Translations under genes and position numbers: made by a program
Origin: a virus
Lineage: Duplodnaviria > Heunggongvirae > Uroviricota > Caudoviricetes
DNA: 4,500 bases
Virus record (IMG/VR): IMGVR_UViG_2529293213_000032
Location: 1-4,500 of that record
Direction: 5' to 3' (one strand)
Shown here: positions 1 through 4,500 of the stretch, piece by piece
Layout of the letters: each line of letters begins with the position of its first letter
Numbering within the stretch: the stretch's first letter is position 1
Notes under the pieces: model-generated
Seen by the model: only the letters and a program-made list of their open reading frames with translations
The model's database searches: none
What the model was told of the DNA's origin: nothing

Positions 1-760
1 GTTTTTCCGGGTCATAGTTTGACGGTACCTGGATGATGCGACCGCGGATATGGTAGTTCACCGTCATCTGCTGACCGCCAAACTGCTCCGCATCCACCTG
101 CAGCCCCACAATCGCCGTGTTCGGGTAGCACTGTTTCACATCGATGATTTCGGTGTATGACGACCAGAGCGTCTTATTCTGCAGCTGGTCCGTGGTGCTG
201 TCCGCCGTCTCCCTGACCATCCGGATGTTAAAGGGGCGGGGAGGCAGATTCTCCAGAATCACCGACGCCAGGTACTGTGAGGTGGTCTTGCCGTTAATGG
301 TGACATCCTTTTCCGTCACCCAGTTACCGTTACGCTGCAACTGAATCAGCAGTCGGACAGAAGAGTGATTACGGTCGCCCTTTGAGGTGGTCTCCAACAG
401 TGACTGCACCCCGAAGGTGACCCGCAGGCGGTCAATGTTCGCGGACGTAATGGTGCGCGTCACCGGTTTTGCCTTCGTCACTTCCACGCCCAGTCCGGTT
501 TCAGCTCCGGAGGACTCAAAGCCTTCCGGTGGTGTCTGCTCCTGCTCCCCGGCACGCCAGACCGCGGTCACACCGTGTATCACGGGATTGCCGTCCGTGT
601 CCGTCAGTGGGGTTTTGTTCACCAGAATACTCTGCAGTCCCTTCACCGGACCTTCTATCGGTCCCTCACCAATCGCATCAATCACACTCATCATCTGCGT
701 GGATTTGAGATTATCCTTCGCCTCACGAGGCGTGTGTGCCTTACCGCCACCTTTTCCCAT
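1..760 (-). CDS. J: Tail tip / host specificity protein gpJ, N-terminal 253 codons (partial; 3' end lies beyond the window start)
   Basis: Manual reverse-complement translation from ATG at 760..758 is open to position 1 and reads MGKGGGKAHTPREAKDNLKSTQMMSVIDAIGEGPIEGPVKGLQSILVNKTPLTDTDGN...NIRMVRETADSTTDQLQNKTLWSSYTEIIDVKQCYPNTAIVGLQVDAEQFGGQQMTVNYHIRGRIIQVPSNYDPEK. This closely matches the lambda gpJ N-terminus as I remember it (MGKGSSKGHTPREAKDNLKSTQLLSVIDAISEGPIEGPV...). RBS GGGGAAGG lies 4 nt upstream (766-773 region). Absent from the supplied ORF track, presumably because there is no in-window stop. Confidence 0.9.
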   Translation of the reverse strand, partial: MGKGGGKAHTPREAKDNLKSTQMMSVIDAIGEGPIEGPVKGLQSILVNKTPLTDTDGNPVIHGVTAVWRAGEQEQTPPEGFESSGAETGLGVEVTKAKPVTRTITSANIDRLRVTFGVQSLLETTSKGDRNHSSVRLLIQLQRNGNWVTEKDVTINGKTTSQYLASVILENLPPRPFNIRMVRETADSTTDQLQNKTLWSSYTEIIDVKQCYPNTAIVGLQVDAEQFGGQQMTVNYHIRGRIIQVPSNYDPEK

Positions 761-898: not shown

Positions 899-965
899 CA
901 TGCCCACCGATAATCCTGTTGGTTAAAACCGGTAATGGCATAAAAATTCTGAATATCTTCACATT

Positions 966-993
966 TTCACACACTGACTGTGGCGCTTATAAT
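966..993 (+). promoter_or_regulatory. Sigma70-like promoter: -35 TTCACA (966-971), 16-nt spacer, -10 TATAAT (988-993); AT-rich upstream region 930-960
   Basis: Read directly: consensus -10 hexamer, 5/6 match to the TTGACA -35, acceptable spacer, A/T-rich UP-like tract upstream. Oriented opposite to the tail genes. Predicted transcription start near 1000. Confidence 0.45.
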
Positions 994-999
994 TTCGCT

Positions 1000-1098
1000 G
1001 CGTTAGTGTTTTTTTGCCCGAGTAACAAAAACAACTCCTTAACATTGATCTTCATTTGTCTGTCCCCGCAGCTCCGCGATCACTGCGGGATTTTTTTA
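1000..1098 (+). ncRNA. Candidate small non-coding RNA (~100 nt) between the promoter at 966-993 and the terminator at 1065-1098; antisense orientation relative to the tail operon
   Basis: Inference from a promoter plus intrinsic terminator pair with no plausible ORF between them (no ATG on the plus strand in 1000-1096). The predicted transcript contains a CUCCUU anti-Shine-Dalgarno-like motif (about 1036-1041) and ends in a GC stem plus U-run. No homology claim is made. Confidence 0.25.
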
Positions 1099-1099
1099 T
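1065..1099 (+). terminator. Rho-independent terminator (plus-strand orientation)
   Basis: 7-bp GC-rich stem CCCGCAG (1065-1071) / CTGCGGG (1083-1089), 11-nt loop, then ATTTTTTTAT (1090-1099). On the minus strand there is no T-run after the stem, so it is unidirectional for plus-strand transcripts. It sits 4 nt outside the I stop codon. Confidence 0.6.
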
Positions 1100-1102
1100 G
1101 TT

Positions 1103-1783
1103 TTATCCCTGTCGCCCGACAACCACGACCGTTCCGCCCCCGCCTTCATCACGGGTGCTGATGTCCTGGGATATACGGCGGGAGCCAACCAGCATTTCCC
1201 CGTAAGGCACCGGCATCGGGTTCCCCTGGGCAATCATGTTATCCAGCGAGGAAAAGTACGTGTTCTGTCTGCCGTTATCCGTTGCGCGGTAATCCGGTGT
1301 TTTTGCCTTCGGGGCCAGCATCTGGGCCACACCGCCCAGAATCATGCTGGCTCCAAGTGAAAACAGCATCGTGGTGGCAGAAAAACCACCGGCTGCCAGG
1401 GCTGAACCCCATAACGCCATTGATGCCCCGGCAGTGAAGAAAGAGCCCACGATGGCTGCCGCCCCCAGCACAATCTGCAGTCCACCCTTTCCGGCCCCGG
1501 CCAGTCGCGGCACAATATGGATGACCGTTCCCTCACCCAGCTGTTCGTGAAGACGGGCGTACACCGCCTCCGGTGCCGTGTCATAACCGGCAATACGTAT
1601 CTGGTACCAGCCTTCGTTCATCTGACGGCGAAAGCCCGGCACCTGTAACGACAGCGCCCGGATGGCTTCCGCTGCCGTGTTCACATACAGGCTGAGGCGG
1701 CGGCCAAATCGTTGTAAATCCCCGTGAAGGCAGATACGTGCCAGTGGCGGTGACGCCAGGCTGAATGCGTTCGTCGTTGCCAT
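1103..1783 (-). CDS. I: Tail tip assembly protein gpI homologue (226 aa)
   Basis: ORF-track protein MATTNAFSLASPPLARICLHGDLQRFGRRLSLYVNTAAEAIRAL... matches the lambda gpI N-terminus as remembered (ubiquitin-like domain, ...ARICLYGDLQRFGRR...). It has the central Gly/Ala-rich hydrophobic segment and the C-terminal NTYFSSLDNMIAQGN...YGEMLVGSR motif. Putative RBS GGAGAGG is upstream of ATG 1783. The 5' end overlaps the K 3' end by ~103 nt in another frame, as K and I overlap in lambda. Confidence 0.9.
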   Translation of the reverse strand: MATTNAFSLASPPLARICLHGDLQRFGRRLSLYVNTAAEAIRALSLQVPGFRRQMNEGWYQIRIAGYDTAPEAVYARLHEQLGEGTVIHIVPRLAGAGKGGLQIVLGAAAIVGSFFTAGASMALWGSALAAGGFSATTMLFSLGASMILGGVAQMLAPKAKTPDYRATDNGRQNTYFSSLDNMIAQGNPMPVPYGEMLVGSRRISQDISTRDEGGGGTVVVVGRQG

Positions 1784-2425
1784 TTTTCGGAATACCTCTC
1801 CCGTTTACTCAGTTGTTCAGGCAGATGGTGAAGCAGTTCACCGTTGCCGCAGTATATGGCGGCATGATTGGCCACCGATGCGCCAAAGCAGCACAGCAGG
1901 ATATCGCCAGGCTGTGCGGAAGGCAGGGAAATCCTAGTAAAAACCAGTACGCCTCCATATTGTCCAGGTACAGGTTCTGACCGTTGCGCCACCAGTCATC
2001 CTCACGCTCAAAATCCGGCATGTTATTCCCGCCAGATGGTATGCATCCCGGAACAGGGTGTAACAGTCCGTCACCCCGTGCTCAAAACGACGCCCGGTCA
2101 GGTGCGGCACACAGCGGAATTTGTGAATTTCCCCCCGGCAGACCAGCCACCAGGGCAGGGCACTCTTTATCTGCAGCCGCCGGTCCGCCTCGCTCAGCCA
2201 GGGCAGGCCACCGGGGTGGCTGTGGACCAGTGCCACAATCTCCCCCTGCATCTCTGCCCGCAGCCAGTCTTCCGGTGCAATACGAAAATACGCCTCCGGC
2301 TCTGCGGAAATATTCACACAAGGGATATACCACTCCCCCTCCGGCGTGCTTATCACGAAGCCGCACGACTCCGCAGGCGCACACCGCCGGGCATGCGCCA
2401 GAATCGCTGATTCAGTCTGTGTCAT
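1681..2425 (-). pseudogene. K: gpK-like tail tip assembly protein (JAMM/MPN domain plus NlpC/P60 peptidase domain) with the reading frame interrupted twice; either a pseudogene or a sequencing indel artefact
   Basis: Three consecutive minus-strand frames carry contiguous K-like sequence. Frame A 2425..2024: MTQTESAILAHARRCAPAESCGF...HSHPGGLPWLSEAD...GVTDCYTLFRDAYHLAGI (JAMM motif H-x-H-x7-S-x2-D at 2183-2224; NlpC/P60 catalytic Cys codon 2063-2065). Frame B 2021..1950: MPDFEREDDWWRNGQNLYLDNMEA. Frame C 1947..1681: LVFTRISLPSAQPGDILLCCFGASVANHAAIYCGNGELLHH...TGIYNDLAAASACM (NlpC/P60 His motif, His codon 1864-1866). The frame switches need a 1-nt deletion near 2022-2024 and another near 1948-1950. 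The out-of-frame continuations look like non-coding junk (Cys/Trp/Arg-rich). Start ATG 2425 is 10 nt after the L stop. Confidence 0.55.
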
Positions 2426-2435
2426 AAACCGGGAT

Positions 2436-3134
2436 TTACTGCGAAAGTTTATTAATGGAAAGGAAACCGCCAAAATTGCCGACATTCCTGCGCAGTTCAC
2501 ACCCGCGCATGCACTTGCTGCATCTGTCCTTACGGATATCCGGGGTGGGGTTGTCGAACTCATCCGCCACCGCAGGACCGTTATACCCGCATTCATCTCC
2601 CCGGTAATCCCACATACAGGTGTTCGCCAGCATGATGCGACCGGGAAACAGCGCCCCGTCCGTCTCGGTCGGTGTTGCCAGCACAAACGAGGCTGTCATG
2701 GCCGTCAGCTCTGACATCTGCTCCACCACCCAGCGGTCTCTCAGCTCCTGCTCCGGGTCCGCTTCCGGATTGCCCGCCACAAAATTCACCGCATCCAGAA
2801 AACGGGCATACACCCGGCGGCGGACCACCGTGGCACCCACCAGGCTCTGCAAATCCTCCGCCATCCCGGTGACAAGACCGAACAGATTGGACACCGTCAG
2901 CGACGGGCGGGCACTGCTGCCCTTCCCGTTCATCTCAAAGCCACTGCCGTCAATCGGGTATACCTGATATTGCCGCCCCTGCCAGGTGACCGCCTCCCCT
3001 TTTTCATTCAGCTCATTACAGAAAAAATACCGCTCACCGCCCTGCACCGTCAGGTCGATTTCCCAGAGCACCACCCGCGGTGACTGCTCTGACTTAACCG
3101 ACTCGTTCAGGCTTTCTTCATGAATATTCTGCAT
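2436..3134 (-). CDS. L: Tail tip protein gpL homologue (232 aa) with C-terminal four-Cys Fe-S cluster motif
   Basis: Translation from ATG 3134..3132: MQNIHEESLNESVKSEQSPRVVLWEIDLTVQGGERYFFCNE...GNFGGFLSINKLSQ, matching lambda gpL as remembered (MQDIRQETLNECTRAEQSASVVLWEIDLT...). The C-terminal cysteines (DEC...DRC..SKC..RGC) fit the reported gpL iron-sulfur cluster ligands. The ORF-track start at 3161 is 9 codons upstream and lies inside M; the ATG at 3134 shares one nucleotide with the M stop (TGATG), consistent with translational coupling. Confidence 0.9.
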   Translation of the reverse strand: MQNIHEESLNESVKSEQSPRVVLWEIDLTVQGGERYFFCNELNEKGEAVTWQGRQYQVYPIDGSGFEMNGKGSSARPSLTVSNLFGLVTGMAEDLQSLVGATVVRRRVYARFLDAVNFVAGNPEADPEQELRDRWVVEQMSELTAMTASFVLATPTETDGALFPGRIMLANTCMWDYRGDECGYNGPAVADEFDNPTPDIRKDRCSKCMRGCELRRNVGNFGGFLSINKLSQ

Positions 3135-3430
3135 CAGTTCACCACCTGCTCTATCGTGCAACTGAAATCACTGTACCGGGCATTATCCGTGACACTCCAC
3201 TCACGGCACACAACCCTCACCGTCCGGTTATGTTTCGGCGGTCGCCACAAAAAGGCACGGTAACCACCATGCCAGGATAAAAATTCATCCAGCCAGCGCC
3301 GGGTTGACTCATCCGTCACCCGGAACACCGCCTGAAACGTCTTCAGTTGAGGATTCAGCCCTGTGGGCGCGCTGTTCATAACCGTCACCAAACCGCACCT
3401 CACCACCGACGGCTTCTCACTCACCTGCAT
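3134..3430 (-). CDS. M: Minor tail protein gpM homologue (98 aa as called; start uncertain)
   Basis: MQVSEKPSVVRCGLVTVMNSAPTGLNPQLKTFQAVF...FLWRPPKHNRTVRVVCREWSV...FSCTIEQVVN aligns with residues ~12-109 of lambda gpM as remembered (C-terminal EQVVN conserved). In-frame stops TAG (3452-3454) and TGA (3467-3469) upstream preclude a lambda-length N-terminus. An alternative GTG start at 3424 has better spacing to the AAGGG RBS-like sequence. Confidence 0.85.
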   Translation of the reverse strand: MQVSEKPSVVRCGLVTVMNSAPTGLNPQLKTFQAVFRVTDESTRRWLDEFLSWHGGYRAFLWRPPKHNRTVRVVCREWSVTDNARYSDFSCTIEQVVN

Positions 3431-3531
3431 CCCTTCACGCGGGACCAGATGCTAGCGTTTTTTATCTCAGCCACTCAGCATTCCTCCGTCACGTCGCATG
3501 GACAGCATCACCGCCTGCACCCGCTGGTCAA

Positions 3532-4500
3532 TCAGCTGCACAGACTGCCTGCCGCCTCCGGCCCTATCTGTCCGTTAGCCCCGTCATTCTGAATGGCAAT
3601 GTGGTAGACCGGGGAATACACCAGACCAGCACTGCCGTTCATACTGCCCACGGCGCGTACGCCCAGCGAGCCATCCGCCGCCCGGGTCAGGGGCATAATA
3701 GCTTCAGGTCCGGCTTCCCCCATCAGCCCGGCCCCTTTTGCAAACGCAAAGTACGTGGGCGTGTCCACAATGCTGTTGCTGTACGCGCTCAGGTTTGCCG
3801 AGGTATACACGCCGCCTTTTGCATTGGCCACCGCTCCGCCCAGCCAGTCACCAATGCTGCCGAGAAATCCTCCCGCACCGGACATACCGTTTGCCGCCGT
3901 CTTAATTCCGTTGACAATCGCGGCATTCATAAGAACTTTTGATATTTCCTGCAGCACTGATGAGGCCCAGCTGCGCCATTCCACTTTATTTCCGTTCAGC
4001 ATCTCCGTGATGTTATTCACCATCCCTGAGATACCCTCCGTCGCCAGCTGTGCTGCCTGTGAGGCGTAATCGGACGCATTATCCACCCAGTTACTGAATC
4101 CCTCCTGCAGCCCTTTCTGCCAGTCCGCACGCTGCACATCCGATTCGGCATAAAAGACTGCCTGGTCCTTAAGGCGTTCGCTCAGATACTGCGCGTTCTG
4201 TGCCAGCGCCTGTCTGTAAAAATCCTCACTGATATCCCCGGTCTGATACTGAGACTGAAGGTCCGCATCCTTCTGGCGGAAGCTGTCGCGGATCTGCTGC
4301 AACTCCCGCATGCGTTCTCTGGCTCGTTCTCCCTGCCCGTATCCCAGCAGTTCGGCTTCATTTGATGCACGCGCAGCCACATTATCATTCTTCAGGGTCT
4401 CTTCCCGGGATCGCAACTGTTCCCGGATTTTTTGCTGGTCAATCAGGGCCGCGTTACGCAGCAGTTCCTGCTTCTGCATCTCCGTCAGGGTTTTCAGTTC
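3532..4500 (-). CDS. H: Tail tape measure protein gpH, C-terminal ~322 codons (partial; 5' end lies beyond the window end)
   Basis: The frame is open from 4500 (ELKTLTEMQKQELLRNAALIDQQKIREQ...) to the TGA at 3532-3534. The coiled-coil-like charged N-terminal part and the Gly/Ala-rich C-terminal part (GMSGAGGFLGSIGDWLGGAVANAKGGVYTSANLSAYSNSIVDTPTYFAFAKGAGLMGEAGPEAIMPLTRAADGSLGV...) are typical of lambda-like tape measure proteins, and the gene sits immediately upstream of M-L-K-I-J. The 3' end is uncertain (see findings). Confidence 0.85.
   Translation of the reverse strand, partial: ELKTLTEMQKQELLRNAALIDQQKIREQLRSREETLKNDNVAARASNEAELLGYGQGERARERMRELQQIRDSFRQKDADLQSQYQTGDISEDFYRQALAQNAQYLSERLKDQAVFYAESDVQRADWQKGLQEGFSNWVDNASDYASQAAQLATEGISGMVNNITEMLNGNKVEWRSWASSVLQEISKVLMNAAIVNGIKTAANGMSGAGGFLGSIGDWLGGAVANAKGGVYTSANLSAYSNSIVDTPTYFAFAKGAGLMGEAGPEAIMPLTRAADGSLGVRAVGSMNGSAGLVYSPVYHIAIQNDGANGQIGPEAAGSLCS

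Follow-up and report, generated by a model that had tools for sequence, protein, structure and literature searches.

Many of the prophages carried by Escherichia coli O157:H7 are defective, with morphogenesis genes among those affected (PMC2669165), and the prophage regions of these genomes are hard to assemble (PMC4587872). The closest counterparts of the DNA analyzed here are Sp12 of strain Sakai, CP-933P of EDL933 and a prophage of FRIK944, which share its gene order, orientation and Pfam families at 98.0–98.4% identity over all 4,500 bases. However, our sequence has nine single-base indels that they lack, plus short blocks of alleles from another prophage type. The window (i.e., the whole stretch of 4,500 bp that was analyzed) is the reverse complement of the entire contig AMTP01000066.1 from GCA_000302715.1, a 2012 draft assembly of E. 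coli FRIK920 (O157:H7), a strain placed in lineage II by the typing literature. The searchable literature yielded no mention of the AMTP01 accession or the assembly identifier and named FRIK920 only in two typing papers; the strain is also absent from the 26-strain genome announcement that includes its sister strains (PMC3593324). The tail segment on this contig is multi-copy, with as many as 18 places in a complete E. coli genome and 16 in the closest strain, FRIK944.

Gene calls and Pfam matches identified lambda-like tail genes on the minus strand of the contig. Tape measure, M, L, K, I and J follow one another on one strand, collinear with the modules annotated in FRIK944 and Sakai Sp12. 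Three relatives, all of them intact, were aligned with the window, namely FRIK944 copy a (L001), Sakai Sp12 (L002) and O121 RM8352 (L003). The genes are:

3467..4500, minus strand: H, 3' part, tape measure; Pfam Tape_meas_lam_C, aligning with the annotated tape-measure CDS of L001 and L002
3134..3474, minus strand: M, minor tail gene; GTG start at 3474
2436..3134, minus strand: L, minor tail gene, intact, 232 aa; Pfam Phage_tail_L, exact match to EKH06272.1 of E. coli FRIK920
1681..2425, minus strand: K, tail-tip assembly, JAB/C40 peptidase; in three frames, split by three indels
1103..1783, minus strand: I, tail assembly, intact, 226 aa; Pfam Lambda_tail_I
1..760, minus strand: J, 5' part, host specificity, cut by the contig end; FNIII-A_GpJ, aligning with the annotated gpJ of L001

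The exact I protein occurs on 185 contigs and is named a tail assembly protein of cryptic prophage CP-933P. As deposited, H, M and K are broken and lack a full-length product, and the annotation mis-calls all three (products of 322, 84, 163 and 49 aa), which bears out an earlier warning that assembly quality would affect the gene calls of this contig. Specifically, the authentic H stop lies at 3467-3469 and the deposited reading frame ends early, at 3532-3534. Translation of M from the GTG at 3474 reaches a stop after 17 codons, and the gene call for M is an 84-aa fragment only. A 98-aa reading frame within M (3134-3430) is open only since the last three deletions add up to -3; it has no record as a called product in the exact-protein index because the caller kept the 84-aa version.

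Nine single-base indels separate the window from its intact relatives. The first-pass annotation had reported up to three frame disruptions between 1930 and 3575, two in K and a possible third at the end of H; disruptions are indeed present in the deposited sequence, but there are nine of them, with three in K, one in H and five, not itemised before, in M, the most damaged gene. Neither are they all single-base losses in short runs, as had been stated, since four of the nine are insertions and three of those four lie outside any run. The events, with their window coordinates and with alleles spelled on the coding strand, are:

3542, minus strand: event 1, in H; TT>T, 25 codons before the H stop, turning the last 24 H residues into 'CS*'
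3458-3463, minus strand: event 2, in M; A5>A6
3453, minus strand: event 3, in M; +A, GCTGC>GCTAGC, four bases beyond the A run
3398, minus strand: event 4, in M; GGG>GG
3367..3369, minus strand: events 5 and 6, in M; GCGCCGCCCCAC>GCGCGCCCAC (CC>C, CCCC>CCC)
2022..2031 (about 2026), minus strand: event 7, in K; one-base loss at a switch between two prophage alleles
1949, minus strand: event 8, in K; +T, GCGAC>GCGTAC, five bases before a T5 run
1936, minus strand: event 9, in K; +T, TACAGG>TACTAGG, two bases away from the T5/A5 run of event 8, making an in-frame TAG in K

All nine events are confined to two patches spanning 176 bp and 91 bp, and nine positions placed at random formed two patches as tight in 0 of 200,000 trials. 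Outside these events there is not a single indel between the 4,500-bp window and L001. Private gap openings of the window amount to 7 in 2.3 kb (3.0 per kb), against an average of 0.18 private indels per kb at 60 other close homologous loci, 49 of which have none; the other outliers of this baseline are assemblies with many tail genes flagged as frameshifted. Private substitutions, on the other hand, number zero in 4,500 bp, every substituted base being found in some other prophage copy. When the nine events are reverted, the H end and M become identical to FRIK944 (L001), M after five reversions (WP_000807954.1), and K is restored to a full-length protein of 247 aa that differs from the L001 protein at 3 residues.

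These patterns bear on whether FRIK920 truly carries a decaying cryptic prophage without functional H, M or K, a reading that we consider highly improbable. Precedents for such decay are available: besides the defective O157 prophages introduced above, J is split in Sakai Sp12, and PGAP marks K, I and J as frameshifted in several complete genomes. Slippage at homopolymers also occurs as natural mutation, and it could have produced the changes in run length, to which five to six events out of nine belong. What argues against decay is that nine indels come with zero private substitutions and lie so tightly together, that three insertions have the geometry of carry-forward errors, and that one deletion falls within a column-wise hybrid of two alleles (the last two are described below). 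In mutation accumulation studies of E. coli (Lee et al. 2012, PNAS), base substitutions reportedly exceed small indels roughly tenfold. Unconstrained substitutions alongside the indels, as would mark a pseudogene, were not seen, and the repaired M is a widespread protein. A local burst of indel-only mutagenesis, by which all nine events would be real and would have arisen together in FRIK920 within two patches of less than 180 bp, strikes us as highly improbable. Such a burst could come, for example, from error-prone filling of gaps as co-resident prophages recombine, which would give frameshifts without substitutions. Programmed ribosomal frameshifting and phase variation were rejected, given that the relatives are single-frame at all nine sites and the runs span only 2–6 bases.

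Looking for the same indels in closely related genomes had been proposed as a check, and among the matches listed from 5,426 complete E. coli genomes none was shared except for the length of one C run. The best identities over the two patches in these genomes were 97.9% and 97.1%. The shared run is that of CCCC>CCC, its sole sharer is ATCC 43889, and the assembly of that strain is full of frameshifts. No shared indel was found in phage records either. Exact strings bearing the indels at 3542, 3453-3463, 3398, 3367-3369, about 2026, 1949 and 1936 had no match in IMG/VR, and the 3453-3463 string had none in species-representative genomes, both being collections without most O157 drafts; the 1936 string had none in metagenome contigs. 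As a control, the intact version of the 1936 string was present in 65 IMG/VR contigs. Likewise, the frameshifted K fragment was found in AMTP01000066.1 only, among 153 billion indexed gene positions of the exact-protein index. The same lesions, expected in independent related genomes if these were established pseudogenes, are thus missing from the listed complete genomes (the C run apart), IMG/VR, metagenomes and the protein index. A mutation private to one strain would likewise be missing from other genomes, but the lineage is highly clonal and heavily sequenced and still, the C run apart, no indel was found in a relative.

The local sequence of the events provides a second line of evidence. 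Five of them are clear changes in homopolymer length (TT>T, A5>A6, GGG>GG, CC>C, and CCCC>CCC), and a sixth, the loss in K, affects a short run at a polymorphic site. In each of the other three, the inserted base is that of a run of at least five bases located 2, 4, or 5 nt away. Only 1.07% of the possible non-extending insertions match the base of a nearby run in this manner, so three out of three would be expected with a probability of about 1e-6 if the events were independent. Both features looked for as marks of flow chemistry were therefore found, i.e., homopolymer miscalls and non-homopolymer insertions that copy the base of a nearby run. Huse et al. (2007) described carry-forward error in pyrosequencing as the insertion of the same base near, though not adjacent to, a homopolymer (PMC2323236), and Gilles et al. 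(2011) described the combined effect of carry-forward and incomplete extension (CAFIE), with errors gathering at 3' ends and in reads of poor quality (PMC3116506). Given the kind of errors and the assembly date, we infer a 454-type chemistry. The batch that includes the sister draft TW09109 was sequenced with Illumina alone or with Illumina plus 454 (FLX/XLR) and assembled with Velvet or Celera (PMC3593324). In K and J, TW09109 itself has lost single bases from homopolymers, and these losses are private.

A third line of evidence comes from the mosaic of alleles along the window. The backbone is of the L001 type, and only a second FRIK944 copy (L007) matches blocks 193-278 and 2022-2216 in full. 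The part of the second block next to the K deletion is:

2032..2216, minus strand: block in K, matching the second FRIK944 prophage copy (L007) and not the backbone copy L001

The K deletion sits precisely at the switch from the L007-type allele to that of L001 and L003, and at this site both alleles are mixed column by column, with GGGAAT-AACATG in the window versus GGGAATTGATATG in L003 and GGGGATAACGCTG in L007 and L008. The L protein (EKH06272.1) is also a mosaic, its 3' part matching L001 and its 5' part L002, and in the exact-protein index it occurs on 1 contig only, this combination of alleles being unique to AMTP01000066.1.

Such a mosaic would also be expected if the consensus were a chimera of at least two co-resident prophage copies, with one or two indels genuine in a single copy and the remaining ones artefactual. 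Candidates for a real change would be the run lengths near T5 in K or at the A5 run where H and M meet. This possibility gains from the fact that, at these same two homopolymers, a T6 run is found in FRIK944 copy b and an A7 run in NJS001; a true T6 read combined with incomplete extension would yield exactly TTTTTACTAGG. However, the T6/CC allele was found in FRIK944 only (1 of 567 records), and A7 was found in NJS001 only (1 of 1,177 records), so that each is private to one assembly, and both look like errors of their own assemblies and not circulating alleles. We accordingly regard a mixture of real and artefactual indels as improbable. For the same reason, the reading of the +2 at the H/M junction and the +1 near T5 in K as smeared A7 and T6 alleles was rejected.

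Private indels, the lack of private substitutions, and the signatures of flow errors and mixed paralogues all strongly support the error-prone assembly that had been offered as one of two alternatives, and we consider it very probable that the frame breaks are errors in the deposited consensus, an artefact of assembly and not a feature of the bacterial DNA. The other alternative, a decaying cryptic prophage, is not supported, the indels being private to one draft contig and coming without private substitutions. Errors of this sort in a consensus would require coverage that was locally low or mixed. An O157 genome contains many nearly identical copies of the lambdoid tail genes, which may have caused the read coverage to be broken up or mixed between copies, and over the two patches the consensus was probably built from a few poor reads of a flow chemistry (454-type) together with reads of more than one prophage copy. 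Such reads would give rise to homopolymer miscalls, to carry-forward-type insertions by the A5/T5 runs, and to one gap at the junction of paralogue alleles. Most likely, the H, M and K genes of the real locus are intact, like those of the corresponding prophage (Sakai Sp12 / EDL933 CP-933P type) in related strains. If the breaks are errors of the consensus, they say nothing on whether the prophage is defective, and the sequence of AMTP01000066.1 gives no grounds for the claim that it could no longer assemble a tail tip.

The junction of I and J had been credited with an actively transcribed moron. What we find there is only a predicted pair of promoter-like and terminator-like elements on the opposite strand, and the spacer had no Rfam match to a known sRNA. 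AgvB and AsxR were rejected by location as identities of this spacer, and the Sp12 sRNAs tabulated in the supplement of Tree et al. do not include it.

Where tail genes are frameshifted in O157:H7 drafts, or in some early long-read assemblies, this should not be equated with prophage decay unless it has support at the level of reads. In this same operon, homopolymer indels private to the assembly occur in several genomes labelled complete, where PGAP then calls pseudogenes, and surveys of defective prophages that build on such annotations would overcount defects. Even real lesions would only mean one further defective lambdoid prophage in a strain group where many are known.

In comparison with known cases, the contig resembles the collapsed or chimeric repeat contigs of O157:H7 drafts. 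Natural recombination between co-resident prophages would give the same mosaic, and only the indel at the junction points specifically to an artefact; even so, the contig is short, lambdoid and multi-copy over its entire length, a mosaic of two prophages of one related strain, and has a hybrid with a gap at the junction. The likeness to the 454 errors of Huse et al. and Gilles et al. concerns run miscalls in both directions, insertions of the same base near runs, and clustering in poor stretches. Nevertheless, at most two intervening bases are allowed by Huse et al., whereas the distances here are 2, 4, and 5, and the platform is itself deduced from the errors and the date. Lastly, like the defective O157 prophages of Asadulghani et al. 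(2009; PMC2669165), ours is a lambdoid O157 prophage with disrupted morphogenesis genes, but their defects stand in the finished Sakai genome, whereas those described here are private to a single draft contig and come without substitutions.

The window is identical to the reverse complement of the whole of AMTP01000066.1 (4,500 bp; assembly GCA_000302715.1) and, because of this identity, is one entire short contig from a draft assembly. This was the sole contig with an exact match to the truncated K product in an exact-protein look-up covering 153 billion indexed gene positions. Its proteins are named for Escherichia coli FRIK920, an O157:H7 strain of lineage II. Every gene of the window lies on the minus strand, and the segment is arranged as follows:

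4500 to 3467, minus strand: tape-measure gene H, 3' part
3474-3134, minus strand: M
3134-2436, minus strand: L
2425-1681, minus strand: K
1783-1103, minus strand: I
between I and J, ~340 bp: I-J spacer
760-1, minus strand: J, 5' part

The segment is highly repeated: a complete E. coli genome may contain as many as 18 places for it, and FRIK944, the strain that matches the window best, contains 16. Identity over the whole-window alignment was 98.4% with a FRIK944 prophage (copy a, L001) and 98.0% with the Sakai prophage Sp12 (L002), both of which are annotated with full-length H, M, L, K, and I. Identical gaps in the window recurred against these two and five further references, and beyond the nine events listed here no further indel was detected against L001 across the 4,500 bases.

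Single-base events identified by alignment with the references (window coordinates; bases written on the coding strand)
3542, gene H: TT>T
3458, gene M: A5>A6
3453, gene M: extra A (GCTGC>GCTAGC)
3398, gene M: GGG>GG
3367-3369, gene M: CC>C and CCCC>CCC
about 2026, gene K: one-base loss
1949, gene K: extra T
1936, gene K: extra T, creating an in-frame TAG

As deposited, H is without its final 24 residues, M stops after 17 codons, and K is spread over three frames. The frame breaks described in the first-pass annotation are thus present in the deposited sequence, but it counted up to three where the reference alignments revealed nine. It also considered all of them compatible with single-base losses, whereas four of the nine are insertions, and it placed the damage in K and H, whereas M is the worst-hit gene.

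The events were confined to two patches, one of 176 bp and the other of 91 bp, and none of 200,000 random placements produced a two-patch arrangement as tight. In 5,426 complete E. coli genomes, the best identities for the indel-bearing patches were only 97.9% and 97.1%, and among the matches listed the best genomes differed from the window by precisely the indels. Related genomes, where the first-pass annotation had proposed to look for the same indels, shared none among these matches except for one C-run length common to the window and ATCC 43889, an assembly whose H, M, L, and K all carry frameshift flags. Exact strings across each indel went unmatched in IMG/VR, in metagenome contigs, and in species-representative genomes, while the intact version of one of them was present in 65 IMG/VR contigs. 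When these 65 loci and the annotated loci were used as a baseline, sixty close homologues displayed 0.18 private indels per kb (49 of them had none) versus 3.0 in the window. Toward the 3' end of L (window 2478-2489), a +1 and a -1 change separated by 11 nt compensate each other; this pair is common to many loci and divides two allele families. Unlike the private indels of the window, it is a case of real, inherited, frame-keeping indels.

Substitutions between the window and each reference occurred in blocks and mainly at third codon positions, as expected of lambdoid mosaics. Considering seven references, all substituted bases were matched by another copy except three positions in H, which had a 100% match in strain UTME-12. 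Since each substituted base is matched in this way, the contig has nine private indels and zero private substitutions. With the nine events reverted, the H C-terminus and the M protein showed full identity to their FRIK944 counterparts, and K reached 247 aa, with three residues different from FRIK944 K; two of these fall within the repaired hybrid site. According to E. coli mutation-accumulation spectra, natural decay with nine indels should bring many more substitutions. Genuine decay of the prophage would agree with the facts that O157 prophages are often defective (PMC2669165) and that J is split in Sakai Sp12 too, but it would have to produce nine private indels without a private substitution, and we deem it very unlikely.

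The events themselves carry signatures of sequencing error. Five of the nine are clear homopolymer length changes, and a sixth, the loss in K, lies inside a short run at an allele-switch site. In the remaining three, the inserted base is the same as that of a run of at least five bases located 2, 4, or 5 bases off: the Ts inserted at 1936 and 1949 flank the A5/T5 run at 1939-1943, and the A inserted at 3453 lies close to the run at 3458-3463. Of the non-extending insertions that are possible in this window, only 1.07% have this near-run property. Carry-forward error of this kind, near a homopolymer but not adjacent to it, was described by Huse et al. (2007; PMC2323236), who allow for no more than two bases in between. 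Carry-forward and incomplete extension have been explained by Gilles et al. (2011), who showed that errors gather at homopolymers and toward read ends (PMC3116506). An intermediate reading, with one or two of the run-length changes genuine in a single copy, is improbable.

At the K deletion, the window switches alleles. Upstream of about 2026 (window 2032-2216) it carries an allele shared by MA11 and another prophage of FRIK944 (L007), and downstream it is of the type of L001 and the O121 RM8352 locus (L003). The junction reads GGGAAT-AACATG, with some columns from GGGAATTGATATG, others from GGGGATAACGCTG, and the gap at a polymorphic column. Blocks 193-278 (in J) and 2022-2216 differ from FRIK944 copy a and, among 73 loci, are fully matched only by L007, pointing to one of two origins: gene conversion among co-resident prophages, or a consensus that jumped from one copy to the other. 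The L protein (2436-3134) is intact, with 232 aa, yet occurs on AMTP01000066.1 only in a collection of 15 billion proteins; the allele is that of FRIK944 in its 3' part and that of Sakai Sp12 in its 5' part, and this L may therefore be an assembly chimera. Natural recombination could account for the mosaic, but not for the gap. Together, the hybrid junction, the J block, and the unique L are what would be expected of a consensus that combined reads from two co-resident copies of the prophage.

The frame disruptions are therefore most probably a consensus artefact. In this short contig of repeated sequence, flow-chemistry errors (on the presumed platform) together with a mixture of reads from paralogous copies would have led to a faulty consensus. 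Between the decaying cryptic prophage and the error-prone assembly offered by the first-pass annotation, the private indels, the lack of private substitutions, the error signatures, and the allele hybrid favour the latter. Its suggestion that the prophage is unable to build a tail tip found no support here, as the breaks are best read as an artefact.

The I-J spacer contains elements antisense to the tail operon (window 960-1100). These are a near-consensus sigma-70 promoter-like site (TTCACA-16-TATAAT, 966-993, plus strand) and a terminator-like GC-rich hairpin on the same strand, with a stem at 1073-1089 by scan or 1066-1090 by fold and a T7 tail at 1091-1097. A transcript of ~95 nt with a CA-rich stretch would be predicted from this strand. 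Comparison of 19 sequence variants showed conservation of the -35 hexamer and of the stem of the hairpin, and variation in the body between them. No Rfam family matched the spacer, and, among the prophage sRNAs with a known location in Tree et al. (2014) that were compared, the element is neither AgvB nor AsxR (both excluded by position) nor a listed Sp12 sRNA. A second perfect hairpin, aaaccccggtatctgctgataccggggttt, lies at 860-895; the only mismatch to Sakai Sp12 there is at position 863.

Other assemblies of this operon present similar anomalies. The TW09109 sister draft (AKLY01000014.1; L009, positions 910 and 2088) belongs to a batch for which either Illumina alone or a combination of Illumina and 454 was used, with assembly by Velvet or Celera (PMC3593324). 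It lacks one base in a G run of K and one in a G run of J, both losses private, and the former lies 3-8 nt from the K deletion of the window, depending on gap placement. In FRIK944 copy b, K contains a T6 run plus an additional C (unique, 1 of 567 records), and the H/M junction of NJS001 contains an A7 run (unique, 1 of 1,177 records). The 'complete' genomes harboring L003, L004 (ATCC 43889), L005 (NJS001), and L007 each have homopolymer indels of their own in this operon, private to the assembly, and PGAP flags H, M, L, K, I, or J in them as frameshifted. Judging from the private run-length changes of TW09109, FRIK944 copy b, and NJS001, homopolymer indels private to single assemblies appear to be a recurring technical problem in this operon. 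Prophage pseudogene counts from such 'complete' assemblies are probably too high, and difficulty in assembling O157 prophage regions has been noted by others (PMC4587872).
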